Position numbers and translations under genes: made by a program. From Candidatus Kaiserbacteria bacterium (lineage in GTDB: Bacteria; Patescibacteriota; Minisyncoccia; Phycocordibacterales; UBA2100), in NCBI GenBank assembly GCA_963767115.1, contig CAVYCR010000005.1:25582-89581 (forward strand): a DNA stretch of 64,000 nt, read 5' to 3'. Of this stretch, positions 554 to 53,050 are shown piece after piece. Within the stretch, counting starts at the first letter, position 1, and every line of letters begins with the position of its first letter. The notes under the pieces are model-generated. The model made no database searches, had not been told where the DNA came from, and saw nothing but the letters and a program-made list of their open reading frames with translations.

Positions 554-931
554 CTATATCCCTTCCTGATCATTCATATATTGCTGCATCTGCGCGCTGT
601 CGGGCATCATGCGGCTGTTGAGCGTGAACATGATCCAGATCGAGCCGGAGACGAGAATAAGGACGACGAGGCATGCACCGGCGAGAATGAAGAGCCGTTC
701 GCCTGAGGAATCTTTGCCGCCGAGATGCAGGAAGCACGCTACCTGCACCGCGAATTGTATGAGCGCGAGAATAATGAGTACGACGAGCGCAGTGTTGTGC
801 GAGAGCTGTCCAGTAACAGTGAGCCAGTATGCAAGCAGCGTGATCGCAAGCGAGAACACGAAGCCGATCACATACGACGCGATCACTTTTCCACCGTGCC
901 ACAAACCGATTTGTTCGAAGTAATTGTTCAT
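554..931 (-). CDS. cyoD: cytochrome o/aa3-type quinol oxidase subunit IV
   Basis: 125 aa with 3 TM helices. Typical CyoD/QoxD sequence (GFVFSLAITLLAYWL..., QFAVQVACFLHL). It is the last gene of the cyo cluster. Confidence 0.85.
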   Translation of the reverse strand: MNNYFEQIGLWHGGKVIASYVIGFVFSLAITLLAYWLTVTGQLSHNTALVVLIILALIQFAVQVACFLHLGGKDSSGERLFILAGACLVVLILVSGSIWIMFTLNSRMMPDSAQMQQYMNDQEGI

Positions 932-935
932 ATCG

Positions 936-1540
936 TTATACGGAGCCCATCAGGTACACGATGGTGAAGATGAAAATCCAGACGATGTCGAGGAAGTGCC
1001 AGAAGAGCGACCAGAGCGCGAGCTTGCGCATGTTGGAGCGCGTAAGACCTTTCATCGAGATTGAGATGATGAGTGCTATGACCCAGAGCAGACCGACGGT
1101 GATATGCAGTCCGTGCGTAGCGACGAGAGTGAAAAACGATGAGAGAAAGCCGTCAGTCTGCGGACCGTTGCCTGCAGCGATGAGGCGCGAGAATTCTGAG
1201 ATTTCCATAGTGAGAAATGCAAAACCCAGAAGCGCCGTCGCGACAAGTGACGCCACGACCATCTTGATGTTGCCAGCGCGCGCAGCGATGAGTGAAAGCC
1301 CTGCGCAAAACTACTAGTGAGCAAGATGATCGTCTCGGTAAGTACAGATGACAAGTCGGACAGACCGGCAGGATTCGATGAGGCTGCCCGCAGCACAAGA
1401 AAGACCGAGAAAAGTCCGGCAAAGAGCACGAAGTCGGTCATCAGATAAATCCAAAATCCAAGGATGATCTTTGAATCCGCCTCGCGGCTTTCGCTTGAGA
1501 GATTCATATCGTAAATTGTGGATTCTGTTGTCATATTCAA
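936..1540 (-). pseudogene. cyoC: quinol oxidase subunit III, split by one frameshift near 1300
   Basis: The N-terminal part (1076..1540 frame: ...ILGFWIYLMTDFVLFAGLF...LLTSSFA) continues in another frame (936..1262: MVVASLVATALLGFAFLTMEISEF...WHFLDIVWIFIF). The junction reads SSFAQG / GLSLIAARAGNIK. Confidence 0.8.
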
Positions 1541-2376
1541 TAAGAGACTGATGTCGTTGCGACTTGAATAGAACTGATCAGTGCATCCAACTCTCCCTGT
1601 GTAAGACCTTTAGAGGTGATCTCGAAAATGTCATTGCCGTTCTTGTCGAAGATATTGACACTACCTATAGCACTACCGCTTCCAAGTTGCGAAATCGAGT
1701 CGATATATTGCGTGTGCGAAACAAGAAGCGGGATGGGACTTACGATGTATGCCTTTGTCTGAAGCAAACCTATGTTCTTAAAGGTTTGAGTTGGCGAACT
1801 AAAAACGGTTCCAGGCGTAATAGAACTGACTGCCAACCAGAGTTGGTATTCACTTTCCGGATTACCTTCGGAATCCATAATGGTACTCGTGCCGTCGTCT
1901 GAGAGCATTATTATCGTAGAAGCAACATCGGTGTTGGGAGGATTATTATAAAATATTCCGAAATCTTTATTTCCGGCGACAAATTTGGTTCCTTCATCCG
2001 AGGGGAGCACCTCACTAATGCTCGTACTTGCAAGCGGAGAATTAAATGTAAGAGTACCAACAGTAAAAATCTCCCCGCTTCCCAGGTCAGGCGTTGGGGC
2101 TAGTGTGTGATCTTGCGGAAGGTTCCAAAGCTCATTCCAAAAATCATCTTGCCAAAGATGATCTTGGTTTGAATCTTTCAAGGAGATTAGCAAGCCAAAA
2201 GCAAAGAGATACGGAGATGCTGCAACCACGATGAGGACAAGAGCAATAATTAAAAACAAGCGTTTTAGCCACTTTCTGGGTCGACTATGATTCTGTGGCG
2301 CTTGATTCATATGATCCATCCCCTCAGGTGTAGATACCGAGGAGACGGGTGTGGTCTGTGTATCTTTTAGTGGCAT
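1537..2376 (-). CDS. hypothetical membrane-anchored protein inserted between cyoB and cyoC
   Basis: The ORF 1537..2508 is trimmed to Met45 (MPLKDTQ...) to avoid overlap with cyoB. It has one TM (LFLIIALVLIVVAASPYLFAFGLLI) followed by about 240 aa of extracytoplasmic domain. There is a 4-nt overlap with the cyoC start. Confidence 0.55.
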   Translation of the reverse strand: MPLKDTQTTPVSSVSTPEGMDHMNQAPQNHSRPRKWLKRLFLIIALVLIVVAASPYLFAFGLLISLKDSNQDHLWQDDFWNELWNLPQDHTLAPTPDLGSGEIFTVGTLTFNSPLASTSISEVLPSDEGTKFVAGNKDFGIFYNNPPNTDVASTIIMLSDDGTSTIMDSEGNPESEYQLWLAVSSITPGTVFSSPTQTFKNIGLLQTKAYIVSPIPLLVSHTQYIDSISQLGSGSAIGSVNIFDKNGNDIFEITSKGLTQGELDALISSIQVATTSVSY

Positions 2377-2405
2377 AAAATGACTTTGATAATTGAGTTG
2401 TCGAA

Positions 2406-4383
2406 TTAGTGTATCTCCGATGTGGGAATTATATACTTGGTATCTTCTTGAAATGCACGCACGAAGATGCAAGTGATAGCACCGACGAGACCGAGAATCG
2501 CGAGCCACCAGATGTGCCAGACGATGCCAAAGCCGGCGGCAAACGCGCAGGCGCCGATCATGACACCGATGCCGGTGTTGCGCGGCATGCGGATTTTGAG
2601 CAAGGTTTCGCCTTGCTCAGGCGCATACTGCCACTGTATTTTCGTCGTGCCATGCTTTTCTTCCCACCACGCATCGCGGTCGCTCACCACGGGCAGCGCG
2701 GCGTAATTGTACTCTGGTGGCGGCGAAGATGTGGACCATTCGAGCGAACGAGCGTCCCACGGATCTCCGCCCACCCTGTTCGTATCGCGGCGCCTGATAC
2801 TACGAACTATTTGTGCGATTTGGAGAATGAATCCGAGTGTAATGATCGCGGCGCCGATGCCCGCAATGATGAAAAAAGGCTGCCAGCCGAGACTTGCACT
2901 GTAGTGATCGATGCGTCGTGTCGCACCCATCATGCCGAGGATGTAGAGCGGGCCGAATGCGAGGATGAAACCAATGAGCCAGCACCAGAAGGCCTTGCGC
3001 CCGAGATACTCATCGAGCTTGAAGCCGAAAAACTTCGGGAACCAAAACGTGATGCCCGCGAAGAATCCGAACAGTACGCCCGAGACGATCATCGTGTGGA
3101 AATGCGCGACCAAGAAGAGGCTGTTGTGCAGCTGATAATCGGCGGCCGGCTCGCGCCATGACCACGCCTGCCACACCGCCGAGCGTGAAGAGCACGACAA
3201 ACCCCATGAACCACAGCATCGGAGACTCGAAGCGGATGCGGCCGCGATACATCGTGAAAAGCCAGTTGAAAATCTTGACGCCGGTGGGCACCGCGATCAC
3301 TGCGGTCATGATGCCGAAAAAGGTGTTCACATCCGCACCCGCTCCCATCGTGAAAAAGTGATGCAGCCAGACGATAAACGATAGGATGACGATCGCCCAC
3401 ACCGATACCACCATCGAGGTGTAGCCCGCGAGCTTCTTGCCGGAGAAGACCGGCACGACTTCCGAGAAAATGCCGAAGGCCGGCAGGATCAGATATGTAG
3501 ACTTCCGGGTGCCCCCACGCCCAGATGAGATTGACGTACATCATCATGTTGCCGCCGGCGCCTGCCGTGAAGAAGTGCGTCATGAGCGTGCGGTCGAGTG
3601 CGAGCAAGTGCGAGTGTGACAGTGAGAATCGGAAAGGCGAAGACTACAAGCGACATCGAGCCCAAAACCGTCCAAGTAAACATCGGAAGCCGCATCCATG
3701 TCCATGCCCTTCGCGCGCATGCTGCACGATCGTCGTGATGAAATTCACTCCAGAGAGCAAGCTGCCCAAGCCCGCGATCTGCAAGCTCCAGATCCAATAA
3801 TCGACACCGGCGGTCGGACTGTACGCGATCTCGGAAAGCGGCGGATACGCAGAGCCAGCCGGCCATCGAGAAATCGCCGATGAGAAGCGAGAGATTGACC
3901 AGAGCTGCACCTGCGGCAAAGAGCCAGAAGCTGACGCGAATTGAGAAACGGAAACGCGACGTCGCGGCTGCCGATCTGCAAGGGCACGACGAGGTTCACG
4001 AGGCCGAAAAGGATTCCCATCGCGACGAAGAAGATCATGATCGTGCCGTGCGCGGAGAAGATCTCTTGGAAATGGCTCGCGCTCACGATGCCGATACGAA
4101 TCACCGACCGAGAGTCGCCTGCTGCGTGCGCATGAGAAGCGCGTCGACGCCGCCGCGCACGAGCATGATGAACGCCACGGCGATGATACATGATGCCGAT
4201 CTTCTTGGGGTCGAGCGAGGTGAGCCATTCATTCCAAAGGAAGTGCCAACGATGGTAGTACGTGATCAGGGCGACGATGATCACTCCGACGCACAGCATA
4301 AAAAGTGCGCCGCCCCACGCGATAGGGTTGGGCGGGAAAACCGACCATGAGAGCGTGCCGAGGATGAGCGTCGTCCAGTCCAT
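2406..4383 (-). pseudogene. cyoB: quinol oxidase subunit I (heme-copper oxidase), at least 8 frameshifts
   Basis: CyoB-like sequence is recoverable only by hopping between six ORF fragments (3745..4383, 3644..4228, 3489..3866, 3089..3607, 3010..3456, 2406..3200) plus a short unlisted frame near 4105-4185. Motifs present: [58 protein letters not shown]. Confidence 0.9.
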
Positions 4384-4389
4384 ATGACA

Positions 4390-5355
4390 TTACATGTGTG
4401 CATTCATGTCCATTTGCATCGGCATATCGTGCATATTCATGGTAGTCGAAGACGACAGTGATGCGCTTTGCGGCGTGACATCGAGCGCCTGCGTACCGAG
4501 AGATGACATGTATTGCATGGTGATGCCGTCGAAGAGATCTCCGTCGACCGGATAATAATACACGACAGGGTTGTATGTGCTGGGAGCTGCAAGCGTACGG
4601 TACGAATCCGGAGAGAGCGGTATCGACGATGACTGAAGCGAGCGCACCCACATATTGAAGTCACCTTGAGAAACAGAATGCACAGTGAAGGCCATGCCGG
4701 CAAAACCTTGCCCACTGATGTTGCCCGAGAGTCCGTTGAAATCTCCCGCGCGCGACGCCTCGAGGCTGAGCTGTGTCGTCATGCCGGGCATCACCATGAT
4801 CTGGCCACCTAAGCTAGGTATCCAAAAAGAATTCATCGGCGCATCGGCAGTCAGCTCGAAGTGCACGGGGACATTCTCAGGGATCTCAAGCATATTGACT
4901 GTCGCGATCCCCTCCTGTGGGTATATGAAAAGCCATTTCCAATCGAGCGCGACCACTTCTACTTGGAGTGCCTCGCCAGGGAGCGGAGCATACGGGTCGA
5001 GCGCGTGCGTCGAATGCCACATGATTACGCTCAAGAAAAAGACGATTACCAAAGGCGGCAGCCACCAGAGGATCTCGGAGAAAGCGCTGTAATGGTCCCA
5101 GCGCGGATGATGCGACTGCCGCGAGGTCTCGCTCCCGGCGCGATACTTCCAGGCAAAAAGAAAAAGCAGGAAAAATACTGGCACTACGATGACAGCACAG
5201 AGCGCGAGCGTCGCAAGAATCACCGAGCGCTCGCCGAGCGCTATGGGACCGGCGGGGTTGAGGACTGCCATTCGCGCGCGATCTGTGTATGCAATTGTGG
5301 CAAGCCCGAGGATCGCGAGGAGGGCGATGCTCGCGGGCGCTATGCTACGTTTCAT
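4390..5355 (-). CDS. cyoA: quinol oxidase subunit II
   Basis: Intact 321-aa ORF with a lipoprotein-like N-terminus and 2 TM. It has a CyoA-type cupredoxin fold sequence (VVALDWKWLFIYPQ, NSFWIPSLGGQI) and a Met/His-rich C-terminal tail MNMHDMPMQMDMNAHM. Confidence 0.9.
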   Translation of the reverse strand: MKRSIAPASIALLAILGLATIAYTDRARMAVLNPAGPIALGERSVILATLALCAVIVVPVFFLLFLFAWKYRAGSETSRQSHHPRWDHYSAFSEILWWLPPLVIVFFLSVIMWHSTHALDPYAPLPGEALQVEVVALDWKWLFIYPQEGIATVNMLEIPENVPVHFELTADAPMNSFWIPSLGGQIMVMPGMTTQLSLEASRAGDFNGLSGNISGQGFAGMAFTVHSVSQGDFNMWVRSLQSSSIPLSPDSYRTLAAPSTYNPVVYYYPVDGDLFDGITMQYMSSLGTQALDVTPQSASLSSSTTMNMHDMPMQMDMNAHM

Positions 5356-5359
5356 CCCG

Positions 5360-6840
5360 TTAGTGTATCACCTGTGTCTGGCCATTCCCCGACAACCGTA
5401 GGCCAAATACTGCAAGCGCCGCTGCACACACGGAGAAGAGTGCGCCTACGAGAAATGCTGCGTCATAGCCGCCCGCAAGCGACTGCGCGAGAGCCATACC
5501 ACCCGAAGAGAGGTGCTGCGTGAAGCCTCCTGCGATACTCGCAAGGATCGCGAGACCGAGCGCTCCGCCCATCATAAACGCGGTGTTGACGATGCCGGAA
5601 GCAAGGCCCGACTCGTCCTGCGGCACGCCGTCGAGCGCCGCGAGAAGCATCGGGTTGAGCGCGATGCCCGAGCCTAAGCCGAGCGCGATCATGCCGGGGA
5701 GCACGTTCCAAAGAAACGTCCCGCCGACGGATGCAAAGGAAAAGAGCGCGAGACTGCATGCTACGAGCCCGAGACCAAACATAAGCGAATACTTGATGCC
5801 GTAGCGTATGACGATGCGCGCCGAGAGACCGAGGGAGAGTATCGCCATGATGATGTTGCCCGGTAGAAACGCGAGACCCACTTGCAGTGGCGAATAATGC
5901 AGGACCTGCTGCAGATAGAGCGCCGAAAGGAAAAACCACGCGAACATCGATGCGGACCAGAGTATGGCGATTCCGTTGGCGATCACGACGTTGGGGATAC
6001 GGAAAAGCGAAAGCGGCATCAAGGGAGAGCTCACGCGCGATTCGATCCAGACGAAAAGGCCGATGCCTGCAAGCGAGACGAGTAGTAGGCCGATCGTTTG
6101 CAGCGAGAGCCATCCCGCATAGGATCCGTTGACGATCGCATAGGTGGCGACGATGAGCGAGACGTGATGACGACCGCGCCCCACACATCGAGATGCATGT
6201 GCTTTGTCTCCCCTTTGCCGCCGTCAAGCAGGTAGAGCGACGCAATGGTGACCGCGATGCCGATCGGGATATTTACCAAGAAGATCCAGTGCCAGTCGAG
6301 CGCGGCGGTCAAGACGCCGCCGAGAAAGACGCCGAGCGATCCGCCGCCTGCGGCGACGAATCCGTACACGCCCATCGCTTTGGCCCGTTCCTCTTCCTCG
6401 CGTAAAGAGATTCATCATCAGTGAGAGCGCGACGGCCTATGCGATCGCGCCGCCCGATCCCTGCACGGCGCGCGCGACGATAAGCAATTCTTGCGATCGT
6501 CGAAATGCCGGAGAAAGCGAGCGAGCGTGAAGAGGCGCGATGCCGAAGAGAAAAAGTCGCGCGTTGTCCGTACAGATCGCCGAGCCTGCCGCCGAGCAAG
6601 CAGGAAGCCGCCGAAGGTCAGCGTGTAGGCGTTGATCACCCACGCGAGGTTGGATCATGAGAAACCGAGGCTATCGCGGATCGACGGCAGCGCGACATTG
6701 ACGATCGTCGTATCGAGCACGATCATCAGCGTTCCCATGCACAAGAGGACGAGCGACCACCACTTCCGGTTTGACGTGTGTATAGTTGTCATAATCGCAG
6801 ACAATACCGTACAAAAGCCGGAAAGAGAAACGCCCGCCAT
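5360..6840 (-). pseudogene. MFS transporter (EmrB/QacA-like), 2 in-frame stops plus about 7 frameshifts
   Basis: The N-terminus ...MIVLDTTIVNVALPSIRDSLGFS is followed by an in-frame TGA (6655-6657), then SNLAWVINAYTLTFGGFLL. There is a second in-frame TAG (6437-6439) inside GGAIA*AVALSLMMNLF. The sequence hops frames about 7 times between about 6190 and 6600. The C-terminal 274 aa (5360..6184) are intact. Confidence 0.85.
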
Positions 6841-6902
6841 ATGAGACGCGGCGGGCGCTTGCCCCCCTTCTTACTCAGTATTACTAAAACTATCAAACTA
6901 GA

Positions 6903-7052
6903 TTAGAGCGGATTACGGCCCTGTATGACGCGGATCAGGATGACGATGACCGCGAGCACGAGAAGCAGGTTGATAAATCCGCCGAGCGTAAACGACGTGA
7001 TGTAGCCGAGTGCCCACAAGATCACGAGAATCACCGCGATGGTCCACAACAT
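6903..7052 (-). CDS. small membrane protein (lmo0937-like family)
   Basis: Hand-translated 49-aa ORF below the ORF-track cutoff: MLWTIAVILVILWALGYITSFTLGGFINLLLVLAVIVILIRVIQGRNPL. It is a typical two-TM small protein of that family. Confidence 0.6.
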   Translation of the reverse strand: MLWTIAVILVILWALGYITSFTLGGFINLLLVLAVIVILIRVIQGRNPL

Positions 7053-7120
7053 ATTATTTTTTTCGATAGTGATAATGGGTAACTATAATTCGGCAAAGAT
7101 GAAGGGATCATTAAACATTA

Positions 7121-7540: not shown

Positions 7541-7547
7541 GACAGGA

Positions 7548-7997
7548 TTAGGAAGCGAGTGTGCCTATATAGAACTGCTGCAAGATTTGCGCGGGCTGGG
7601 ATTGTCCGCCATGCTGGGCGTTGAATGCAGATGAGCCGTCGGAGCCGCAGATGGAGAGGATATGCTCGGGACCACCAGGGTGTTGGTTGATCCAGCTGGT
7701 AAGGTCGTAGACTTTGCCGTTGATCGCGCTCCAGCAGCTTGTCGCATCCTTATGCTGCGCTACCTGCGCCATCGTGTATGACTGCGCGGCAGTGCTCGTG
7801 CTCGTCGTGGAGGTCGTACTTGTGCCTGTGGTAGTGGTGCCTGTCGAGCTTGCAGTGATCGTGTATTGGCCGCTGGAAGATGGCGATGCCGATTGCGACG
7901 ACTGCGTACCCAAGACCGCAAAGCCGATAACGACGACCGCAATGATAAAGACTGCGCCTAAGATATATCGTGATTTCATATAATGCCGATAATACAC
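7548..7997 (-). CDS. membrane-anchored cytochrome b5-like heme-binding domain protein
   Basis: N-terminal TM, a T/S-rich linker, and a C-terminal b5-type core (HKDATSCWSAINGKVYDLTSWINQHPGGPEHI). Confidence 0.75.
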   Translation of the reverse strand: MYYRHYMKSRYILGAVFIIAVVVIGFAVLGTQSSQSASPSSSGQYTITASSTGTTTTGTSTTSTTSTSTAAQSYTMAQVAQHKDATSCWSAINGKVYDLTSWINQHPGGPEHILSICGSDGSSAFNAQHGGQSQPAQILQQFYIGTLAS

Positions 7998-9016: not shown

Positions 9017-9113
9017 GTTTTGTTATGAGATTGCGTATTTCCAAGGCTTTTCCATGGCGAAACTATATCACCAAACGTTCCTATGCTGACAACTTTTGTG
9101 CTACGATTCGCTC

Positions 9114-9323: not shown

Positions 9324-9329
9324 CAAATA

Positions 9330-9791: not shown

Positions 9792-9808
9792 GGGATATTT
9801 TGAAAAGA

Positions 9809-10333: not shown

Positions 10334-10369
10334 GTGGTGAGCGAGCAGTCATGAAGCAATGCCTCAACC

Positions 10370-10879: not shown

Positions 10880-10972
10880 AAGTATTGGGCGTTATAAATA
10901 TAATTTAATAATACGAGTAATCATTTCATGTACAATACTCAAGATAAAGTATACGAGGTCAAAAATCAGGCC

Positions 10973-11350: not shown

Positions 11351-11353
11351 ATC

Positions 11354-17791: not shown

Positions 17792-20746
17792 CTAATTTGA
17801 AACCCCGAGGTAACGCAGAACCTGCTGGAGAATATTCGCCATTTGATCAAGTGTTTGTCCTGCTTCTGCCGCACTCGCGGTCTGTGAAGAGGTCGAAGCA
17901 ACAGTAGCAGAAGATGTAGAGGCAGTGTTGGAATAGGCACGGATATATGCGATCTGCATGTCGTTGATGGGCGGTGTCGCATTGGTCGGCCAACCGGAGC
18001 CGATGCCGAGGTCAGCCAGCATGTAGTACGGCTGATGCATGACGGAAGGCGTCGGTGTCTGGAACGTGAGCACCCCGTCGTAGTAGAAGCTCATCGTCTG
18101 CGGCGTCCACAACATGCCATAGGTGTGGTAATTACCGTCCGACGGGACAGGCTCGACAGAGACGCTGCCGCGTGCTGCCGTAGTGCCGGCAGTCCAGTCA
18201 TGCAAGGTCGTGCTGAAATGGTTGATGAATGAAGGGTTCGCAATGTACTCCATGATGTCGATCTCCCCATGAGAAGTCTTAACACCAGTCTTGCTCGCCT
18301 CGTCGAGCATCCAGAAGGCGGGCCACGTGTCGATACCGGAAGGCAGTTTCGCTTTCATTTCAAAATATCCATACTCCTGCGAGAATCCTTTGCCGGTATT
18401 GTCGACTGAGGTCATTACTCCTGAGGTCCATCGTTTGTTCACCTCTTGCAGGCGGATATCGAGACCGCCGCCCGGAATGAGCGAATAAGGATCCTGCGGG
18501 TCGCTCAAGCCGACCATCGCGGTTGCCGCGCCGTCGGTCGTCGACATGCAGCACGCTTCGTTGTGCGTGTACCAATTGGATCCGTCGTACACGCGAGAGT
18601 CAGAGATGCTGAGCTTTTGGAACTCATCGTCGAAGGTAAGGTGGTAGCCGGCGAGGCTTGGCCCGGTAGAAGTAGCAAAACCGAGCGATGCAGACGGCGT
18701 GCCGGAGGCACTCACGTCGAGTACGCCCACATAGTATCGATACGCTTGGTCATGAACGACGCCAGGACCGGCAGTAAGCGCCAGTATTCCCTTCGAGCCA
18801 GTCAGTGTCGCCATCACATAGTAGGTCCCGTCGGCAAGTGCAGGCACAGTCATCAGGTTTTGGACAGAAATCGGCCCAGACCACTGCGTCGAGGGCAGGA
18901 CAACAGCGCCGTTATTGAAACTATTCGCCACATGAGCGACAGTGGCGCCGCTTGCGTTCACGAGATAGAGGTCGAGACGACTGGTCTCGGTCAGCGATTG
19001 CGTAGCAGAGAAATTGGTCTGGAAGTTGACTATAGAACCAGGAGCTGCCGTCTGCACTTGCTGCGAAAGAGGGTTGATCGTTACGATACTGCTGTCATCT
19101 GCCCCCGGAGTGACCGACGCGATCGTCCACTGCGGAAGCGCGGGCATCGTAGAGGGCGTGCTTGAACTAACAACAACCGGAGGAGTAGGAAGTGGTTGGG
19201 TCGTCGTACTCACACTATTGGAAGCGGCAGAAATATTGCCAGCAGCATCAAACGCCTTCACGGTATATGAGTAGCTCGTCGAAGGCGCAAGACCCGTATC
19301 GCTGTATGACGTAGTGCTTGCAACGCCGATTTGAGTGCCACCGCGATATATAGCGTATCCGCTCACCCCGACATTGTCTGTGGAGTTCGCCCATGAAAGG
19401 TTTATCTGTGAGATTGATACGACGTTCGCCGAAAGATTTGCCGGAACTGATGGTGGAGTCGTATCAGGCGGTATGGTAGTCGTGACTGAGACTGAAGAGC
19501 TCGCCGATCCGCCGAGACCACTGCACATGAGCGAATAGATACTTGAAGACAACACTCCCGTCATCAACTGCGACCCCGCAAGTGCTTTCGAGCCCGCCCA
19601 GCCACCTGAGGCGGCGCACACAGAAGTATTGATCGAAGACCAGATAAGACTGAAGGAGCCACCTGAGAATATTGTCGAGGTGCTTGCGACGAGCGATACG
19701 GCAGGCACAGGTGCCGGAGCAGCAGCGATAGAAACGGATTGCGTCGATGACCCCCCTGCACCACTACACGTGAGCGTATAAGTGGAAGATGTAGTGATGT
19801 TAGAGATCAATTGCGATCCACTAATAGGTTCCGTTCCATTCCAACCGAGAGATGCAGAACATGAGGTAGCACCGGTCGAAGACCATGTGAGCGTAGTCGA
19901 GCCACCGTACGGTACGGTAGAAGAGCTTGCTGAGAAAGAAATTGTCGGAGCTACCGGCGTAGGTGGCTGAGTTGGTGAGGACGAAGAAGCCGAGGACCCC
20001 GAAGATGTTGATGATGAGGATGTCGAAGAAGAAGTTGATCCTGCGAGCGGAAGGACAGCGAGGTTGAGTGATTTTGAAACTGTTCCGGTAGGTCCCGTGC
20101 AGGTCAGCATGTAAACCTTGTCGGTAGTCTCTCGAGGGATGAAGTCCGATCCCGCAAGAGGGACAGCACCACTCCAGCCGTCATCAGCCTTGCAATATGT
20201 CGCATATTTGGAGCCCCAAGTGAGCGTCGTCGAACCACCGAACGAGACCGGCGAAGGACTGGCGATGATGGTCACGAGCGGCGTAGGCAAGGACGACGGC
20301 AAGATAGTCACAGGCAGGGTCTTGACCGTAGTGCCGCCCGGCCCCGTGCAGGTCAGCACATAATCCTTGTTGGTCGTCTCTCGAGGGATGAAGTCCGATC
20401 CCGAAAGCGCTAGTGTGCCGCTCCACCCGTCACCGCCAGCGCACGAGCTGGCGTTTTGAGAGCTCCAAGTGAGCGTGGTCGAGCTACCGAAAGATACAAC
20501 CGCGGGACTGGCTGAGATCGACACGATCGGCGCCGTACTACTAGAGATGGCGCCTGTGGCTGCGGCAGCAGAAGCTGTGAGCACTGTGATCTGGGCTTCG
20601 ATAGAAGAAAGTTGCGCTTCGAGGTCGGCAAGCGTATCGGCCCCCGCAACTATAGGGGCTGCCACAGCCATTGGAACAAGAATGAGGACTGCCACCCCGA
20701 AAACACTAACCAGTCTTCGATTCATCACGGCCTCATAATAGCTCAC
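17792..20746 (-). CDS. secreted multidomain glycoside hydrolase family 16 protein
   Basis: 984 aa with a signal/TM region and four Ig-like repeats of about 95 aa (...STTLTW.S...SC.A..GW.G....SGS......T..YTLTC.G.GG). These are followed by an FN3 domain (PANLSANVVSISQINLSW...YTVKAFDAAGN) and a C-terminal GH16 core with the catalytic motif HGEIDIMEY. Confidence 0.85.
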   Translation of the reverse strand: MSYYEAVMNRRLVSVFGVAVLILVPMAVAAPIVAGADTLADLEAQLSSIEAQITVLTASAAAATGAISSSTAPIVSISASPAVVSFGSSTTLTWSSQNASSCAGGDGWSGTLALSGSDFIPRETTNKDYVLTCTGPGGTTVKTLPVTILPSSLPTPLVTIIASPSPVSFGGSTTLTWGSKYATYCKADDGWSGAVPLAGSDFIPRETTDKVYMLTCTGPTGTVSKSLNLAVLPLAGSTSSSTSSSSTSSGSSASSSSPTQPPTPVAPTISFSASSSTVPYGGSTTLTWSSTGATSCSASLGWNGTEPISGSQLISNITTSSTYTLTCSGAGGSSTQSVSIAAAPAPVPAVSLVASTSTIFSGGSFSLIWSSINTSVCAASGGWAGSKALAGSQLMTGVLSSSIYSLMCSGLGGSASSSVSVTTTIPPDTTPPSVPANLSANVVSISQINLSWANSTDNVGVSGYAIYRGGTQIGVASTTSYSDTGLAPSTSYSYTVKAFDAAGNISAASNSVSTTTQPLPTPPVVVSSSTPSTMPALPQWTIASVTPGADDSSIVTINPLSQQVQTAAPGSIVNFQTNFSATQSLTETSRLDLYLVNASGATVAHVANSFNNGAVVLPSTQWSGPISVQNLMTVPALADGTYYVMATLTGSKGILALTAGPGVVHDQAYRYYVGVLDVSASGTPSASLGFATSTGPSLAGYHLTFDDEFQKLSISDSRVYDGSNWYTHNEACCMSTTDGAATAMVGLSDPQDPYSLIPGGGLDIRLQEVNKRWTSGVMTSVDNTGKGFSQEYGYFEMKAKLPSGIDTWPAFWMLDEASKTGVKTSHGEIDIMEYIANPSFINHFSTTLHDWTAGTTAARGSVSVEPVPSDGNYHTYGMLWTPQTMSFYYDGVLTFQTPTPSVMHQPYYMLADLGIGSGWPTNATPPINDMQIAYIRAYSNTASTSSATVASTSSQTASAAEAGQTLDQMANILQQVLRYLGVSN

Positions 20747-35550: not shown

Positions 35551-36432
35551 TTACTCCAAACCTTTTTCCGCATCAACGAAAGCCTGCAAGTCCCCTTCGA
35601 GCACCTTCTCCACATTACGCTCCTCATGCTCGGTGCGATGATCTTTCACCAGCTGGTACGGGTGCAAGACGTACGAACGGATCTGGCTTCCCCATTCGAT
35701 CTTGGTGGAGGCGCCGGTCGAGAGACCTCTCTCTGCGCTCTTTGCCTCGGCCTCTTTCATTGCGTAGAGCTTGCCGCGGATCATTTCGAGCGCCTTCTCA
35801 CGATTTTGCGCTTGTGAACGTTCGGATGTGACATGTACCGAAAGCCCTGTCGGCGTGTGCGTCATGCGCACTGCGGTGTCGCGCTTGTTTACATTTTGCC
35901 CGCCCGGGCCGCCGGAGCGCGCGACAGATATATCGAGTTCGCTCTCCGGGATCTTGATCTCGCCGCTCTCGGGGATCTTAGGCAGCACCTCGACGAGCGA
36001 GAAGCTTGTCTGCCTTTTGCCCGCAGTATTGAAGGGCGACATGCGCACGAGACGATGCACACCCGCTTCATTTTTGAGTGAGCCATATGCATTGTTTCCG
36101 AGCACCTCGAATGAAACGCTCCTGAAACCTCCCATACTGTTCTCGTTGGAATCGATGAGCGGCGTGCGCCAACCCTTCGACGCCGCGTATTTCTGATACA
36201 TCTGATAGAGTATGCGTGAAAAATCCTCGGCATCGTCCCCGCCCGCACCCGAGATGATCGATACTATAGCGTCGCCCTTGTCGTATCCGCTGCCGCCTTC
36301 GAGCCGCGCCTTGAGGTCCTGGTATTCCTTGAGAGTTGCTTGCGCTTTGTCCTTGTCTGCCCAAAAATCAGGGGCTGCCATCCGCGCCTCGATATCGGCG
36401 ATCTGCTGCGCTATCTCTTCGTGTGCCATCAA
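35551..36432 (-). CDS. prfB: peptide chain release factor 2 (short form, no programmed frameshift)
   Basis: SPF tripeptide (RMSPFN) and GGQ (SGGPGGQNVNK). 293 aa, shorter at the N-terminus than E. coli RF2. I saw no internal UGA or shift site. Confidence 0.9.
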   Translation of the reverse strand: MMAHEEIAQQIADIEARMAAPDFWADKDKAQATLKEYQDLKARLEGGSGYDKGDAIVSIISGAGGDDAEDFSRILYQMYQKYAASKGWRTPLIDSNENSMGGFRSVSFEVLGNNAYGSLKNEAGVHRLVRMSPFNTAGKRQTSFSLVEVLPKIPESGEIKIPESELDISVARSGGPGGQNVNKRDTAVRMTHTPTGLSVHVTSERSQAQNREKALEMIRGKLYAMKEAEAKSAERGLSTGASTKIEWGSQIRSYVLHPYQLVKDHRTEHEERNVEKVLEGDLQAFVDAEKGLE

Positions 36433-36482
36433 GAGAGTATAGCAAAAGAGAATTAGTGATGTCGGACATCACTATATTGTTG

Positions 36483-43793: not shown

Positions 43794-46700
43794 CTAGTTG
43801 TTCTGTGTTGGGGTAGTCGAAGCGGTATCATCTGCCGATGAAGTGGCGGCGTCTGAGTTGCTATTATCTTCTGAAGTTACAGCCTGGACTATCACCGTGC
43901 GGGTAGAGGTAGATGTGAGGCCGTTAGCATCGGTTACTACATAGTAGATGTGATAAGTGGCCGGGGCACTAGTATCTATCACCGCTTGGCTCATGGGTGT
44001 TGTCCCAACAAAGGTTTGGACGCCGAGGTTGAGGTCAGCCTTAGGGCCAGTAATAGTTGCGCCGAGGTCTGAATAGGTATCGCCGAGGTTAATAGTTGCC
44101 GGATTATCGCCGTTTACTTGAATGATGGGCGGGGTGGTAGAAGCCGAGGTATCGCTGCTTTGTGGGTCTGTATCATCAGAACCGCTCGACTGCTGGCCAC
44201 TTCCTGCAAGCACAGTAGCAAGTTGGTCGCCGGTGACGCATACGCTCGTACCGTCGGATTTTTGGACACAGAGCTTTTGGAAATTGCCGGTGTTTGCGGT
44301 AAGAATGTTCGTTGTAAATGATTGAGCAAAACTGGCAACCGTCTGCTCTAGCGAAGCAATTTCAGTTCCAAGCGCTTGTATAGCTTTCACCATAGGTGCG
44401 ATAAGACCGACATAGTTAAGCGTGAGTGTGCCATTAGGCGTCAGCGCAGTTGCAGAGGTTGTGGAAACAAGCTCGGGGAATATTTGCTGCACCTGCTGCG
44501 CGATAAAGCCGAGGTTTGTGCCATCTTCTTGGTCGAGGCGTGTGTACGAAACAGGATTAAGACCTTCAATATCAGCAAGTGAGGACGAGGCGTCGAGCGA
44601 GAGTATGTCCGTTTTGAGTCGCTGGTCGGATGATTGATAGATAGAGCCAGAGTATGTGGCATTGCCATTATCAAATACAGCAAACACTGTAGTTGAGGCA
44701 CTATTCACGACTGCAAACGGAGAAGTAGACGCAGTGTCGGTGCCCCAGACTGTAAGGCGGCTGTAAGGAGTGGTAGTCCCGATGCCGACGTTGCCGGTTG
44801 AGATGGCGCTCGTCGATGCGAGGCCGGTCGCGAATATTAGGTTGCCTATGTCTAAACTGGCATATGCACTATTAGATAGTGCGCTCAATTGATTACCGAT
44901 GATAATACTATCCTTATCTGTAGTGGGCTGATTGGCATCAGTAGAATTACCAAGTCCTATAATAATATTATTGCTACTGCCGGTTCCCAACTTATAGCCC
45001 GCTCCGCCACCAATTGCGATGTTATTACTCGCTTGGGTATTTTGAAAACACGAATTTGCCCCAAGACACGTATTACCAAAAGCTGTAGTTCCTGCCTGGC
45101 CAGCATTATATCCAACATATACATTTGCATTACCGGATACTTGAACTTGTCCAGCAAATGCACCTACAAAAGTGCCCTGATTCCCAGAAGTATTATTTTT
45201 ACCTGCAAAATAGCCGAGGGAAGTGTTGTAGAAACCCGAAGTAATTGCCGTCAGACCTTGATAACCTACCGCAGTATTAAATCCTGGATTCGATATTGTC
45301 GCACTACTTTTAAGCGCTTGATATCCGAGCGCAGTGTTATATGAAGAGGAGGTTGCATTCTGTAATGCTTGGAACCCAATAGCGATATTTCCCGCAGCAC
45401 TAGTAGAAGCAAGGAGATTTGCTCCCGCACTTTGACCAACAAGAAGAGACGAGTTTGTGGTTGAAGCTTGGAGGATAAGATTGCCGTCGATTTGATAGCC
45501 GCCAGTAGTCCCCAGAGTATTGAGGCCGTTATTGAACGTCTGCAAAACAGTCCATGTGTTGACGGTATTCGTTTGCGCACCACTACCACTAACAAGACAC
45601 GAGCCATTGATCGCAAAACATCCGCCTGTAATGTTGACGCCGTTGGCGATGGTAGTTGAACCAGTATTGTCGATTGAAAATAGGGTTGTTGTCGCTCCGG
45701 GAGTCGAGCTAGCAATTACGAAAAGGGTGGTATTGGTGTCACCGCTATTAGCTGCGATAGAGAATCGTGCGTAAGGCGAACTTGTGCCTATTCCGAATTG
45801 TCCGCTTGAAACTACCGTGGTAGATGCAAGTCCAGAGGCAAATAAAAGATTTCCGATATCAAGGCGCGCATAGGCATTATTTGGAAGAACATTTAATTGA
45901 TCTCCTATTTCAATACTATCTTTTGCCGTTGTGGGATACACATTGGAATTATTACCCCCAAATCCAATGAGTACGTTATAACCGCTGCCTGTCAACAAAT
46001 TATATCCCGCATTGGTGCCTATTACAGTGTTATCACTGCCTTGAGCGTTAGAGTAGCAAGCACCGCTGCCAATACAAACGTTTCCGAACCCAGTCGTATT
46101 TGAGAATCCGGCCTTGGAACCTATAAAAGTGCCACTGGAAGGATTAGTGACGGACGCGCCGGCAAGATAACCAATTGCGGTTATGTTAGCCCCCGTTGTG
46201 TTGATACTAAGAGCCCCATACCCGAAAGCGGCATTGTTGCTTCCAGTGGTGTTTGCCGAAAGTGCTGTGCTACCAAACGAGGTGTTATAGGAAGAAAGTG
46301 ATGCAATCGGTTGGCCGCTAGGGGTTTTTACAGAGCCGACAGAGGATGAATCAATACTGGCGTACAAAGAACTCTCGGCACCATTATCAGACACTGTTAT
46401 CCCCGATCCTACAAGCGGTGATGCGGCCACATAGAGTTGATAATCGTTCGTGCCGATACCTTGAAAATTGAATGACATGCTTCGTCCAGCTTCGATGCGC
46501 AAACCTTGGCCGTATGGACTTCCCGAAGTCTCAGCATTATTAACATTGATGTAATACGGCTGATCGGTGGAACTATCCGCCGTAACATCCAGTGCGGCAT
46601 AACCGAGATACGGGCTGATTAACTGGAGCTGATTGAATGATATTGTGTCGACGAGACCTACAAGCGAAGAATCCCCGATCTGTACAAGATTACCAGGCTC

Positions 46701-48911
46701 TATGCCGGTCTGTTGTCCTTCAACACGAAGATTATTTACATTTATCAACCGGAGAGCGCTTGCACCATTGCTGTGCAGTACAAATCCAGGGCCATTGGGC
46801 GCAAATATATTGACATCCTGAAAGGTAACCTCATTAGTGGCATCGCCGCTAGTTGTATTTGTTGACAGCAAATCAACGCCTGGATGAGTAGCATTACCAC
46901 TATTAAAACAATGCAAGTTTTCAATATATGATTCGCGAATATAGGCTTGCGTGGGAACATTTTTTGTAACCCCCGTTCGGAAGCAGCTCCCGTTCATATG
47001 ATCAACAAAGACGGAATCGATGCTGACGTAATCATCTCTATCAAAAAGCGTGATGGCGTTTTGCGTGTTTGTCGCACTTTGATCACCGACTATATGGAGA
47101 TCCGCGAGTATCGGACCCGCGCCTTGCGAAGAAACAAGCAGGGTTGGGGATCCGTATGGTGCCGGATTATTCGCGCCGCCCCAGGCTTCCGACCAAGAAA
47201 ATACATCGCCGGAAAGCGACGGCGCAGCATAGATAAATGTCTGTTCCGTACCCGCCCCCTTGATGCAACCAGCCACCTTGCTAAATGTGGGTAATGCCGA
47301 TGTTATAAGATAAATACCTCCAGGTGCGTACAGGCAGGTGGGTGCCCCCGCTTTATCCAATGTCGCAACATAATTTATAGCGTTTGACCAAGCATTTGTA
47401 TCATCTGTTCCGTAGGTAAATTGACCACCGGTCACAAAACTCCCGGAGAATGTAGCGCCAGTTCCCGAACCACTTGTTGAGGACTGAGTGAGCGTAGATG
47501 CCGTAGCACTGTAAGTGCCCGGCGTTGTAACGACTGGCAAAAGGACACCCATAACAAGTGAGACTGTTGCGCCTGAGAGTGAACCGCAGCCGGTGACAGG
47601 TTCTGCAGAAAGAGAAGTTGGATTTGCCGAATACTGACCATAATTGGTAAAAGTCCCGATAGAAGTAATAACACCAGAGGTGAGAGTAACATTCATACTG
47701 AATTTACGCTCACCGGAACCAGTTGTTCCAGTCGCTACACAAGAACCACTGCTTGAACCGGTGCTTGTGGTGCCCCCAGTGCCTCCAGATACAAGCGTGG
47801 CGCTCATTACTTTTGTTCTATCAACCGTAACTATTGCAGGGACCGATGCTGTACCTCCCAAGAGAGTAATAGTATCGCCGGGCACATAACTACCCGAGCC
47901 GCTTTGGGCAGTGCTTACAAAAACACTGTAAAGAAAACTGTACGGCACACTTGTGGCTGCATTAGCTCCGAGCGTGACATGGTGAGAGTCAGTAAATCCC
48001 GTTATTGTAGTTTGTAACGACGAGGTACCGCTGCCTGCATAATCAATCCAAATTGTTTTGCCTACATCGGCTGATGTAAAGGTTGCCGAATTGCTCGAAA
48101 AAGCACTCGACCCTTGAGTGATTGTCCCGTCGGAATAGCTGAGAGCATTACCCGCCGCACCAAAGTCTTTGACGCTGATAGTGTCAGAGAGTTTGCTTTG
48201 AACACTTCTGGTGATGGAGGTCGAGGTTGATTGCAAAAATTGCAAGCCCGAGACAACCCCAGATGCGGAGGTTGTGCCGGTGCCGCCATTGGCGATTGAG
48301 AGCGCAGTGCCGAGCGTAAGGCCGCCGGAAAAATATCCATTGCCACCGACCGAGAGAGTTTGTGACGGCGAGCTAGTGCCGATGCCGACATTGCCAGTGG
48401 TATAAAAAATATTTGAAATATTGGTTGTCCACTGTGACCCTACAATGCCGAGTGAGGAGGTGGCGGTAAGCGAGTAGCCACCACTATTATTTCCTACTAA
48501 CACTTGACCGTAAGTCGGCGAAGCTGCGAGGCCCGTACCACCGTTGGCAATACCAAGCACGCCGGTTACGTCGCTTGAAAGATTAACAAGCGCAGTCGTA
48601 ATGACACCTGCTACAGCCTTGAGTATTCCCGTAACATTGCCGATAGCAAGATTACCGGATACCGATACATTTCCTGCGAAGGTCGAGGTGGCGGTAGTCG
48701 AAGTTGCCACAAATGTGCCTGCGGTGTTAGCGACAACAACACAAGTCGGATCAGTCGGGGTGCAGGAAGGGTTAAGTGTTTGTCCGGGCAGATATGAAGC
48801 GAGAGCTGCTGTTGGCAAAAGTAGTAATGCAGCGAGCGTCAAAACGGCCGCCGCGCGTGGAGCTGTAATTTTTATTGAAATAGAGCGGAGCGAAAATATA
48901 TATTCATGCAT
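43794..48911 (-). CDS. giant tail-fibre/tailspike-like surface protein (pectate-lyase-like beta-helix, hep_Hag-like repeats, S74 chaperone-type domain, Ig-like DUF5011-type domain)
   Basis: The start is set at MHEYIFSL... (signal-like AAVLTLAALLLLPTAALA); the ORF extends to 49085. Recognisable segments include IANGGTGLA repeats, SVKDFGAAGN (Pectate_lyase_3-like) and two repeat blocks of about 335 aa (DIGNLLFASGLAST / DIGNLIFATGLAST). It also has SSDQRLKTDI...GFIAQQVQQIFPELV (Peptidase_S74-type) and a C-terminal PPIIQVNGDNPATINLGDTYSDLGAT. Confidence 0.85.
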   Translation of the reverse strand: MHEYIFSLRSISIKITAPRAAAVLTLAALLLLPTAALASYLPGQTLNPSCTPTDPTCVVVANTAGTFVATSTTATSTFAGNVSVSGNLAIGNVTGILKAVAGVITTALVNLSSDVTGVLGIANGGTGLAASPTYGQVLVGNNSGGYSLTATSSLGIVGSQWTTNISNIFYTTGNVGIGTSSPSQTLSVGGNGYFSGGLTLGTALSIANGGTGTTSASGVVSGLQFLQSTSTSITRSVQSKLSDTISVKDFGAAGNALSYSDGTITQGSSAFSSNSATFTSADVGKTIWIDYAGSGTSSLQTTITGFTDSHHVTLGANAATSVPYSFLYSVFVSTAQSGSGSYVPGDTITLLGGTASVPAIVTVDRTKVMSATLVSGGTGGTTSTGSSSGSCVATGTTGSGERKFSMNVTLTSGVITSIGTFTNYGQYSANPTSLSAEPVTGCGSLSGATVSLVMGVLLPVVTTPGTYSATASTLTQSSTSGSGTGATFSGSFVTGGQFTYGTDDTNAWSNAINYVATLDKAGAPTCLYAPGGIYLITSALPTFSKVAGCIKGAGTEQTFIYAAPSLSGDVFSWSEAWGGANNPAPYGSPTLLVSSQGAGPILADLHIVGDQSATNTQNAITLFDRDDYVSIDSVFVDHMNGSCFRTGVTKNVPTQAYIRESYIENLHCFNSGNATHPGVDLLSTNTTSGDATNEVTFQDVNIFAPNGPGFVLHSNGASALRLINVNNLRVEGQQTGIEPGNLVQIGDSSLVGLVDTISFNQLQLISPYLGYAALDVTADSSTDQPYYINVNNAETSGSPYGQGLRIEAGRSMSFNFQGIGTNDYQLYVAASPLVGSGITVSDNGAESSLYASIDSSSVGSVKTPSGQPIASLSSYNTSFGSTALSANTTGSNNAAFGYGALSINTTGANITAIGYLAGASVTNPSSGTFIGSKAGFSNTTGFGNVCIGSGACYSNAQGSDNTVIGTNAGYNLLTGSGYNVLIGFGGNNSNVYPTTAKDSIEIGDQLNVLPNNAYARLDIGNLLFASGLASTTVVSSGQFGIGTSSPYARFSIAANSGDTNTTLFVIASSTPGATTTLFSIDNTGSTTIANGVNITGGCFAINGSCLVSGSGAQTNTVNTWTVLQTFNNGLNTLGTTGGYQIDGNLILQASTTNSSLLVGQSAGANLLASTSAAGNIAIGFQALQNATSSSYNTALGYQALKSSATISNPGFNTAVGYQGLTAITSGFYNTSLGYFAGKNNTSGNQGTFVGAFAGQVQVSGNANVYVGYNAGQAGTTAFGNTCLGANSCFQNTQASNNIAIGGGAGYKLGTGSSNNIIIGLGNSTDANQPTTDKDSIIIGNQLSALSNSAYASLDIGNLIFATGLASTSAISTGNVGIGTTTPYSRLTVWGTDTASTSPFAVVNSASTTVFAVFDNGNATYSGSIYQSSDQRLKTDILSLDASSSLADIEGLNPVSYTRLDQEDGTNLGFIAQQVQQIFPELVSTTSATALTPNGTLTLNYVGLIAPMVKAIQALGTEIASLEQTVASFAQSFTTNILTANTGNFQKLCVQKSDGTSVCVTGDQLATVLAGSGQQSSGSDDTDPQSSDTSASTTPPIIQVNGDNPATINLGDTYSDLGATITGPKADLNLGVQTFVGTTPMSQAVIDTSAPATYHIYYVVTDANGLTSTSTRTVIVQAVTSEDNSNSDAATSSADDTASTTPTQNN

Positions 48912-49204
48912 AGAAACTAAAGAAAAGGAGTGGCTCCGTATAACGGCTCCTACTATCAAATTGTACCTTACCCTGCAGCGCTGTGGGGGGGGTGTTAACA
49001 AGCACGGGGACAAGTATTTTGATGTATTGAAAAAGCCCCTAAGAAGGAGCTCAATAGCCGCCTCAATCGGTGGTGTAGAGAACATGATAGCCCCGAAATG
49101 GGCTACCGTCCAAGACCCTAGCAGAACCCAGTGTTTTGCGAAGGGACCAAACTACCAGACAACTATTCGTTGGCCTTGCGAAGAGCAGAGAAAAAATTTG
49201 GTTG

Positions 49205-51291: not shown

Positions 51292-51355
51292 AGTTACCAA
51301 CACTGTCCTATCAGTGCCTTGACTACCCCAGCCGTTGCGTCATCCCTTAAGGGGT

Positions 51356-53050
51356 ATGAACAGAGCAGTATTTTACGCCCGAGTAAGCTCGGATTTGCAG
51401 CACAAAGAACGTTCGATCGAGAGCCAGATCGCAGAGCTGAAGAGGCAGATCGAGAAGTCCGGCAGCAAACTGGTCAAAGAGTACGTCGATAACGGGTACA
51501 GCGGAGCATTGCTCGACAGGCCAGCGATGGACCAACTGCGAAAGGATCTGCGGACGAATGTCTTCGACACGATCTACATCTTGAATACTGACCGCATCGC
51601 GCGCGACGTGACGCATCAGAACATCATCGTCGGCGAGATGCTGCGATACAAGAAACAGATCATCATTAACGGCAAAGATTACATTCATAATCCTGAGAAT
51701 AAATTCACGCTTACAGTACTCGGTGCGGTGTCAGAGCTGGAGCGAGCAAAACTGATCGAGCGTACGACGCGTGGCAGACAGCATCGCTTACGACAAGGAA
51801 TATTGCTCGGCAATGGACATCAGCTGTACGGGTACACATACAGCAAGAAGACTCCTACTTCATGGCCTTCGTATGCGATCAATGAGAAAGAGGCCAAGGT
51901 CGTACGATACATTTTCAATACATATGCCGAGGGCGGCGTCGGTATACATACCATCGCAACACAACTTGATCGTATGGGCGTGGAGAAAAGGCGCGGGAGA
52001 AACTGTCTCGAATATTCAGGGGTCGAAGGTATTTTAAATAACGAGACATATACGGGCTTCCGGTACTTCAATACCATGAAGCAAACGCGGGTGCCTTCAG
52101 ATCCAATGTCCAAGGCGAAGCAGGGCAAAATGGAACGTACGCCACGGTCAGAATGGATTGGTATTCCCGTACCCGCGATCATTTCCAAGAAGATATTTGA
52201 AAAGGTCAGAAAACGCCTTGAACACAACCACGCGTGCTGGCGCAATTCAAGACAGCCACAATTACTTTCCAACTTAGTCTGGTGCGGCATGTGCGAGACA
52301 CGCTGCTACGCACTACGACGCTCGTATCAGATAGAGCGAAGCAACGGGACATATAGGTATCGGCGGATCGTATACGTATGCAGATCGAAAAGCGCATCCG
52401 GTCACATTCCTGAGATCGCTGGTCATGCACTAGAAACACTGACCTTCGACATGATACGAGAGACGATGCTGGTGCCGGAAAGACTACATGAGTGCATTGA
52501 CCTATTGCATAAGCGAGCTAATGCGGGAAAACTGGAACAGCAATTACTGCATTTGGAAGAAAGAATACGAGTAATCGCCCAGCAGAAAAAGCGCATTATC
52601 GATCTGTATGCTTCTGGTGATCTCGAACACGAGGAATATATAAAGCGTATCCGCATCTACGATACCGAAACGACGGCCTTGAAGGAAAAACGCGATGGCC
52701 CTGCCAAATATGCTCCCCTGCTACAAAAGCCGGAGCTGATCGAAGCTGGGATCTCAAAGTACTGCCAGATTGTGCAGACGCGATTCAAGCAATGCGCCGA
52801 TTTTGAGACGAAGCGGAAGTTCTTGCAGGAGTATGTGAGCAAGGTTACGTATCATCGAAAGAACAAGGCTACAACAAAGGTGAAGGTATGTGGATCGATT
52901 CCGATACAGATAGGACCGGAAACGGTCGGCGTGGAGTTCACCATCGAACACAACATGGACTGGCACGAAATGATGGCGAGGTCGCCGAAGCAGTCAGAAC
53001 CATCAGTCGGGTATGACTACGTGCATCCATTCTCAAAAATAACGGTATGA
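51356..53050 (+). CDS. large serine recombinase 1
   Basis: Resolvase catalytic N-terminus (AVFYARVSSDLQ...SIESQ), a recombinase domain, a Cys-rich zinc ribbon (CGMCETRCY...YVCRSK) and a coiled coil. An AAGGGG SD precedes the ATG at 51356. Confidence 0.9.
   Translation: MNRAVFYARVSSDLQHKERSIESQIAELKRQIEKSGSKLVKEYVDNGYSGALLDRPAMDQLRKDLRTNVFDTIYILNTDRIARDVTHQNIIVGEMLRYKKQIIINGKDYIHNPENKFTLTVLGAVSELERAKLIERTTRGRQHRLRQGILLGNGHQLYGYTYSKKTPTSWPSYAINEKEAKVVRYIFNTYAEGGVGIHTIATQLDRMGVEKRRGRNCLEYSGVEGILNNETYTGFRYFNTMKQTRVPSDPMSKAKQGKMERTPRSEWIGIPVPAIISKKIFEKVRKRLEHNHACWRNSRQPQLLSNLVWCGMCETRCYALRRSYQIERSNGTYRYRRIVYVCRSKSASGHIPEIAGHALETLTFDMIRETMLVPERLHECIDLLHKRANAGKLEQQLLHLEERIRVIAQQKKRIIDLYASGDLEHEEYIKRIRIYDTETTALKEKRDGPAKYAPLLQKPELIEAGISKYCQIVQTRFKQCADFETKRKFLQEYVSKVTYHRKNKATTKVKVCGSIPIQIGPETVGVEFTIEHNMDWHEMMARSPKQSEPSVGYDYVHPFSKITV

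Follow-up and report, generated by a model that had tools for sequence, protein, structure and literature searches.

Organization of the locus

The present analysis concerns a cytochrome bo3-type quinol oxidase locus (cyoABCD) and a neighbouring transporter gene of the major facilitator superfamily (MFS), located in a stretch of 64,000 nucleotides (nt) from a Candidatus Kaiserbacteria bacterium (assembly GCA_963767115.1, contig CAVYCR010000005.1, positions 25,582 to 89,581), which is referred to as the window. In the deposited sequence, cyoB and the MFS gene can only be read by repeated changes of frame, and the original prediction, made from the letters alone, had described the region either as a decaying terminal oxidase locus or as a site of localized assembly errors. 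Comparison with an independent assembly of the same sequencing run showed that, where it covers the lesions, the extra bases are confined to the deposited consensus and coincide with allelic differences. We consider it very likely that the frameshifts of cyoB and the MFS gene, together with at least the TAG stop codon of the latter, are consensus artefacts of two collapsed alleles, and that the locus itself is ordinary and intact. The features of the region, with lengths in amino acids (aa) for the open reading frames (ORFs), are as follows.

7997..7548, minus strand: cytochrome-b5-domain gene
Between the cytochrome-b5-domain gene and the DUF5670 gene, minus strand: 139-aa ORF
7052..6903, minus strand: DUF5670 gene
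5360..6840, minus strand: MFS transporter gene of the DHA2 (EmrB/QacA) type, disrupted in the window
6151..6657, minus strand: Patch B, the 5' part of the MFS gene, with all of its frame changes and both stop codons
4390..5355, minus strand: cyoA, quinol oxidase subunit II, an intact 321-aa ORF
2406..4383, minus strand: cyoB, cytochrome bo3-type quinol oxidase subunit I, 655 codons after removal of 10 extra bases
3153..4192, minus strand: Patch A, within cyoB, with all 10 extra bases
1537..2376, minus strand: 279-aa ORF without assigned function, between cyoB and cyoC
936..1540, minus strand: cyoC, subunit III, with one -1 shift
554..931, minus strand: cyoD, subunit IV, intact

Subunits II (with COX_ARM), III and IV are encoded alongside cyoB in one operon, the order of which is interrupted by the foreign 279-aa ORF. 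CyoA matched the Pfam families COX2 (weakly) and COX_ARM, and its product from Met29 onwards is present in NCBI, ENA and Logan, the last being an independent assembly of public sequencing runs. The nearest relatives of CyoA and CyoB were found in metagenome-assembled genomes (MAGs) of Paceibacterota and Saccharimonadia, both belonging to the Candidate Phyla Radiation (CPR), all of which possess an intact cyoABCDE, and the closest CyoB homologues carry the Pfam domain COX1 (PF00115). The gene for heme O synthase, cyoE, lies directly 3' of cyoD in the relatives; none was found within the 64-kb window, which is part of a contig of 157 kb. In the relatives examined cyoC follows cyoB directly, without the 279-aa ORF. 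The sequence of this ORF is nevertheless real, as an identical copy exists in a Logan contig (L084, window 1427-2478); it matched no Pfam family and has an N-terminal hydrophobic segment.

Frame disruptions in cyoB and the MFS gene

The coding sequence of cyoB is spread across overlapping ORFs in all three frames. The events were located by a frameshift-aware protein-to-DNA alignment and by DNA alignment to the relatives L086 and L081, which are 78% and 74% identical to the cyoB of the window at the nucleotide level, respectively. Both alignments gave exactly 10 single extra bases and no missing base, the extra bases being at about 4184/5, 4113-15, 4093-95, 3936, 3850/1, 3718-20, 3702/3, 3607/8, 3493/4 and 3153, and every other gap in the cyoB alignment was a multiple of three. 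Homopolymer runs are absent from the +1 sites apart from one two-base run (GG). The direction of the events is uniform (10 of 10 are +1, p = 0.002), and they cluster in 52% of the gene (p = 0.015).

The MFS gene, for which the events were refined with closer homologues and with the Logan allele, requires six or seven frame changes along the path 0>2>1>0>2>1>0>1, the number varying with the reading of one repeat stretch. Four +1 events were placed at 6597-6600, 6560/1, 6496/7 and 6399/6400, and one -1 event at 6161-63; the repeat GCTCGCTCGCT at 6516-6535 amounts to a net -1, or to two +1 events if the allele is one codon shorter. These events are also clustered within the gene (p = 1.7e-4). Two stop codons stand in frame, namely TGA at 6655-6657 within LGFS*SNLAWV, where homologues have S, G, D or E, and TAG at 6437-6439, where homologues have Ser. 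The stitched MFS protein, of about 478 aa, shares 63-69% identity with DHA2 transporters over 92-100% of the length, and its matches all carry PF07690 (MFS_1).

Taken as a description, the original prediction agrees well with these data. All eight of its cyoB shift positions match, the true count being ten with two close pairs each counted once, and the segments are indeed CyoB-like, the stitched protein being 80% identical to the best Paceibacterota homologues. Alignment likewise gave six to seven changes for the roughly seven proposed in the MFS gene, and the TGA and TAG codons are both present. The genes named as undisrupted, cyoA, cyoD and two large ORFs of 1763 aa (43794..49085) and 984 aa (17792..20746), showed no disruption, and the non-uniformity of the damage was borne out: the probability of zero events in cyoA at the event density of its neighbours is 0.0065. 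The lesions form two patches, 3153-4192 and about 6151-6657, which are independent of gene boundaries.

An independent assembly of the same run

The Logan contigs used for comparison, all retrieved from run ERR11630394, cover the window as follows.

L082, window 36647-44621: 0 differences
L083, window 8561-13052: 1 mismatch
L084, window 1427-2478: 0 differences
L085, window 6701-7982: 1 mismatch
L087 (2,589 nt), window 4035-6628: identical over 4193-6150 (1,958 nt)

Over the 16.8 kb common to the window and these five contigs, there were no indels and two mismatches. L087, which matches the window across the entire cyoA, departs from it on both sides of the identical part. In 4035-4192 (158 nt) there are eight variant sites (about 5%), comprising five single-nucleotide polymorphisms (SNPs; 4192, 4182, 4097, 4087 and 4084) and the absence from L087 of the extra cyoB bases at 4184, 4115 and 4093. 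In 6151-6628 (478 positions) there are 92 differences (about 19%); the extra MFS bases at 6597, 6561, 6496 and 6399 are absent from L087, and both bases that are absent from the window, at 6516 and 6163, are supplied by it. At position 6439 the window has T and L087 has G, so that the TAG codon of the window is GAG (Glu) in the Logan assembly. Translation of L087 accordingly gave a continuous MFS frame of 421 aa up to the natural stop, and residues 1-115 of CyoB were read without a change of frame. The frames are thus open in L087 at 9 of the 16 indel sites of cyoB and the MFS gene (seven extra and two missing bases) and at the TAG site. The TGA codon at 6655-6657 falls in a 72-nt gap between L085, which ends at 6701, and L087, which starts at 6628.

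The truncated products that the lesions would yield are on record for the deposited NCBI/ENA contig (157,086 nt), never for Logan, and include an N-terminal CyoB product of 212 aa, a C-terminal CyoB product of 228 aa, a C-terminal MFS product of 274 aa and a C-terminal CyoC product of 108 aa; the lesions therefore belong to the deposited record, which the window reproduces faithfully, and an alteration of the window itself was rejected. A protein-database search with a 91-aa stretch across three of the junctions returned three distant matches and no Logan fragment, and exact-product look-ups with cyoD, with the 470-aa ORF beside ligA and with the C-terminal ORF of ligA found no further independent contigs. 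Another contig, L088 (ENA ERZ25039493 contig_59001), was considered as a second copy of the locus and rejected, its nucleotide identity of 75-80% indicating another, related organism. In this contig (4155-5523) a 121-aa C-terminal piece of CyoB lies beside cyoC and cyoD, both of which are intact, and the genes upstream are unrelated; the piece is either a real truncation or the product of a misjoined contig.

Probable origin of the insertions: two alleles written side by side

At all seven covered insertions, the string in the window is accounted for by the Logan allele together with another sensible allele. Thus CTT and ATC give CATC, CTC and ACT give ACTC, TAT and TAC give TATC, CTT and CTG give CTTG, CGG and CGC give CGCG, ACG and TCG give ATCG, and CAG and GAG give CGAG. 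The alternative residues Ile, Thr, Ser and Glu obtained at the covered insertions are those present in homologues. The relatives L086 and L081 offer a second comparison, which extends to all ten cyoB sites: at five of them the pair of bases in the window corresponds to the two bases of L086 and L081 at one alignment column (p = 0.0045, against a null of simulated random insertions with 0.128 matches per event). These five sites, each a match to the L086/L081 pair, are the following.

4184: C/A, Leu/Ile
3936: G/C, Ser, synonymous
3850: T/G, Ser/Ala
3720: C/A, Leu/Met
3607: T/G, Leu, synonymous

Furthermore, 9 of the 10 cyoB sites allow at least two one-base corrections that are compatible with homologues (null 0.60, p = 0.044). 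Both the pair matches and the double corrections are expected if the consensus wrote the two alleles adjacently. A link between insertion sites and protein conservation, which cross-mapping onto a conserved core would predict, was not significant (p = 0.12).

The stop codons can be accommodated in the same way. The TAG at 6437-39 would be chimeric, its T coming from an allele with TCG (Ser), the codon of the homologues, and its AG from the GAG of the Logan allele, and the TGA at 6655-57 may likewise combine TCA (Ser) with GGA (Gly).

We propose that the sample holds two alleles, which are identical over about 2 kb (4193-6150). Their divergence is about 5% in a tract of roughly 1 kb in cyoB, as measured on the 158 nt covered, and about 19% in the 5' half of the MFS gene. 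An assembler or polisher would have merged both alleles into a single consensus. At some variant sites, the common supersequence would have been written, for example CT[T/G] as CTTG and [C/A]TG as CATG, each adding one base; at a few, neither allele would have been written, causing a -1 shift; and where adjacent positions differ, parts of both alleles may have been joined in one chimeric codon, as with TCG and GAG giving TAG. A maximum-likelihood or partial-order consensus in which read deletions are cheap would presumably favour writing both bases over writing one base at the cost of many substitutions. The seven uncovered cyoB sites, the TGA at 6655 and the shift in cyoC presumably share this collapsed-allele cause.

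Tests for gene decay

Conserved columns were defined for CyoB as those at least 95% conserved among 120 homologues. The corrected CyoB deviates at 2 of 305 such columns, which equals the median of the homologues (2), and has no stop in 655 codons. It matches subunit I of the Escherichia coli bo3 oxidase over the full length (E = 3e-241) and, when aligned to 1FFT and 8F68, keeps the motifs with H106, H284, E286, Y288, H333, H334, H419 and H421, including AHFH; these comprise the six His metal ligands and the active-site Glu and Tyr of subunit I in the heme-copper oxidase superfamily. The excess substitutions and nonsense codons expected under relaxed selection were therefore not seen in cyoB. 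Bacterial pseudogenes are biased towards deletions, and the indels of cyoB (10 insertions and no deletions, clustered) are unlike this deletion-rich, gene-wide spectrum. The lesions were moreover not reproduced in independent data of the same run, as those of a pseudogene should be.

The original prediction had argued from the nonsense codons that at least the MFS gene is a true pseudogene. This argument is not supported, as Logan has GAG at 6437-39 and 421 open codons. Single open frames in read-based data, which the original prediction had itself set against decay, were found for the MFS gene from 6628 to 5360, including the GAG at 6437, and for codons 1-115 of cyoB. As to its alternative of decay or error, the assembly-error side gains support; the GC-rich context that it proposed as a possible cause does not, and the errors sit where two alleles of the run differ.

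Weighing of the explanations

Several points weigh against the reading of the lesions as collapsed alleles. The Logan contigs cover three of the ten cyoB sites, and the sites from 3936 to 3153, the TGA at 6655-57 and the cyoC shift lie outside their coverage, as does the shift in ligA. In the patches L087 has an allele other than that of the window; it shows that an intact allele exists and that the extra bases follow allelic sites, and the state of the window's own allele is inferred. L087 could also have been joined from two organisms as a k-mer chimera. The corrected MFS protein deviates at 14 of 198 conserved columns, compared with a homologue median of 0; these deviations are conservative, and some lie within the part that is identical in Logan. 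Finally, both the software step responsible and the sequencing platform had to be deduced. Should L087 be chimeric, the extra bases of the consensus would still clearly derive from its allele. The pattern in L087 (2 kb of identity beside tracts of about 5% and about 19%) looks like recombination tracts of coexisting strains, or else like a k-mer chimera.

Among the other explanations, the pseudogenization of a respiratory remnant and its neighbouring transporter throughout the population, in a reduced CPR genome, would account for the frameshifts and two stop codons of the deposited contig, for the additional shift in cyoC, for the foreign ORF between cyoB and cyoC and for the lack of cyoE in the window. 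An intact allele was nevertheless assembled from the same run, the extra bases are bases of the other allele, the damage is patchy inside genes and skips cyoA, and the cyoB events are insertions only, against the deletion bias of bacterial pseudogenes, in a gene whose 655 corrected codons include no nonsense codon and no excess of substitutions; we regard this explanation as extremely unlikely. Decay restricted to one strain, in which the strain with the window allele would be frameshifted in cyoB and the MFS gene and the strain with the Logan allele intact, fits the presence of two alleles, of which L087 reports only one. One would not expect real insertions to coincide with allelic sites and carry the base of the other allele, as they do at 7 of the 7 covered sites, nor does this explanation sit well with the five of ten sites that match variants of the relatives, with the +1 direction of all ten cyoB events or with the window allele of cyoB, which shows no other sign of relaxed selection. 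Such decay, by which one strain of a CPR lineage would have lost oxygen respiration very recently, therefore appears quite unlikely; the more likely of the two is that both strains are intact, with recombination tracts of about 5% and about 19% divergence set in identical flanks. If the recombination-tract reading is true, it would imply that CPR populations actively exchange genes for respiration and efflux by homologous recombination.

Plain sequencing or polishing noise unrelated to alleles (from homopolymers, GC-rich sequence, methylation motifs or low coverage) is suggested by the split of ligA, which is a GGG to GG contraction, and by the contexts CGCG, TATC and CTTGCTCG that several sites share. 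With the single exception of one GG, the +1 sites are not homopolymer extensions, and regions of equal GC content (57-60%) hold long intact ORFs; the shared CTTGCTCG context follows from one Leu polymorphism, CT[T/G] CTC, that occurs at both sites, and the sites coincide with differences of the second allele, all of which makes noise a very unlikely cause. Programmed recoding, by which the ribosome or RNA polymerase would skip one base per site (+1 frameshifting or slippage), agrees with the +1 direction of all cyoB shifts and with a protein perfectly conserved over each junction. Its probability is practically negligible, as the ten cyoB sites share no shift-prone motif and have no zero-frame stop or rare codon and no poly-A or poly-T tract, the extra bases are absent from the second allele and from all relatives, and in the MFS gene there are -1 shifts and stop codons as well. 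A genetic code that reads TGA as sense was also rejected: under code 11 the long ORFs, reaching 1763 aa, stay open, and the other stop in the MFS gene is TAG. On the collapsed-allele reading, and judging from the sequences, the cyoABCD quinol oxidase and the DHA2 efflux transporter are most likely functional, in a Paceibacterota (CPR) genome.

Other disruptions and the remainder of the window

Two further breaks were identified in the window. The -1 shift of cyoC, which was not mentioned in the original prediction, lies at about 1302-1305, where TTT G-C GCA stands and relatives have GTC or CTC. The gene for NAD-dependent DNA ligase, ligA, is split at about 63650 on the minus strand into ORFs at 63611-63994 and 62382-63866; here AGC TTG GCT TCA AG fits AGC TTG GGC TTC AAG (SLGFK) with a -1 shift, that is, a GGG to GG contraction. 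As ligA is normally an essential gene, the split is probably another consensus error, which is more plausible than gene loss. A Pfam survey of about 60 other ORFs gave full-length domain matches almost everywhere, ligA being the one clear exception. A codon-usage frame plot, drawn to detect further frameshifts in the window, proved too noisy for this purpose.

In the closest syntenic relative, L081 (8850-9992), the gene order upstream is the same as in the window (cytochrome b5, an ORF of about 140 aa, DUF5670), and DUF5670 is followed directly by cyoA, with no MFS gene between them. Gene order suggests that the MFS gene may be a lineage-specific insertion upstream of cyoA.

Some additional features of the window were recorded. 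The 1763-aa protein (43794-49085) contains a Peptidase_S74 domain (endosialidase-chaperone, tail-fibre-like) and an Ig-like domain, and its gene is followed by small ORFs and then by two large serine recombinase genes lying side by side (51335..53050 and 53047..54456); the region 43794-54456 may be a prophage or an integrated element. A 168-aa ORF (29998-30504, minus strand) gave a weak match to the ABC_membrane profile, limited to positions 145-221 of its 274, and is possibly an ABC transporter gene that has been truncated or fragmented. Immediately upstream of a short peptide-chain release-factor gene (35551..36432, minus strand) lie two tRNA-Thr genes, with CGT and GGT anticodons (36482-36676). 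A frameshift in the release-factor gene was considered, as the first 96 or so positions of the PCRF profile are absent, and was rejected in view of a clean start at MAHEE...; no sign of the programmed frameshift site typical of prfB was found in it.

Implications and comparison with known systems

Taken at face value, the deposited record suggests a CPR bacterium that is losing its terminal oxidase, whereas the evidence points to an intact cyoABCD. The decaying oxidase locus is not a real feature, and there is no new biology in the frameshifts; cyoABCD in CPR bacteria and the DHA2 transporter are already known from many relatives. The practical consequence is that annotation pipelines will score cyoB, cyoC, the MFS gene and ligA of this MAG as pseudogenes or fragments, and metabolic reconstructions will then wrongly call the organism quinol-oxidase-negative. 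Similar errors in other MAGs can be flagged by single-base insertions only, located outside homopolymers and at codon boundaries, with both SNP alleles written and with clustering in tracts of strain difference.

The lesions resemble the consensus errors of MAGs in which strains have been collapsed, in that the breaks occur only in the deposited consensus, where sites are polymorphic, and leave a protein that is otherwise perfectly conserved. That small indels shift reading frames in long-read genomes and metagenomes is a recognized problem, as indicated by a preprint on a frameshift-correction tool (bioRxiv 10.1101/2021.08.23.457338), and the IDEEL truncation test has been applied in PMC9262707. 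The usual consensus error of a MAG is a homopolymer deletion, whereas here one-base insertions write both SNP alleles and a chimeric stop is formed; in our literature search no paper was found that describes exactly this tandem-allele signature. Genuine pseudogenes of reduced genomes share with the locus multiple frameshifts and premature stops in possibly dispensable genes, and differ from it in that the lesions here are not reproducible, are accompanied by neither substitutional decay nor deletion bias, and track allelic sites.

With respect to the proteins, the order cyoA-cyoB-(ORF)-cyoC-cyoD in the window is like that of the E. coli bo3 oxidase CyoABCD (PDB 1FFT and 8F68), and the ligand motifs of heme b, heme o3 and CuB as well as the E286/Y288 motifs are kept in the corrected CyoB. 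The window differs from E. coli in the 279-aa ORF between cyoB and cyoC, in having no cyoE within it and in its CPR host. The corrected transporter falls among the DHA2/EmrB-QacA MFS drug:H+ antiporters, the members with which it shares its 63-69% identity including some from Pacebacteria and Kaiserbacteria.

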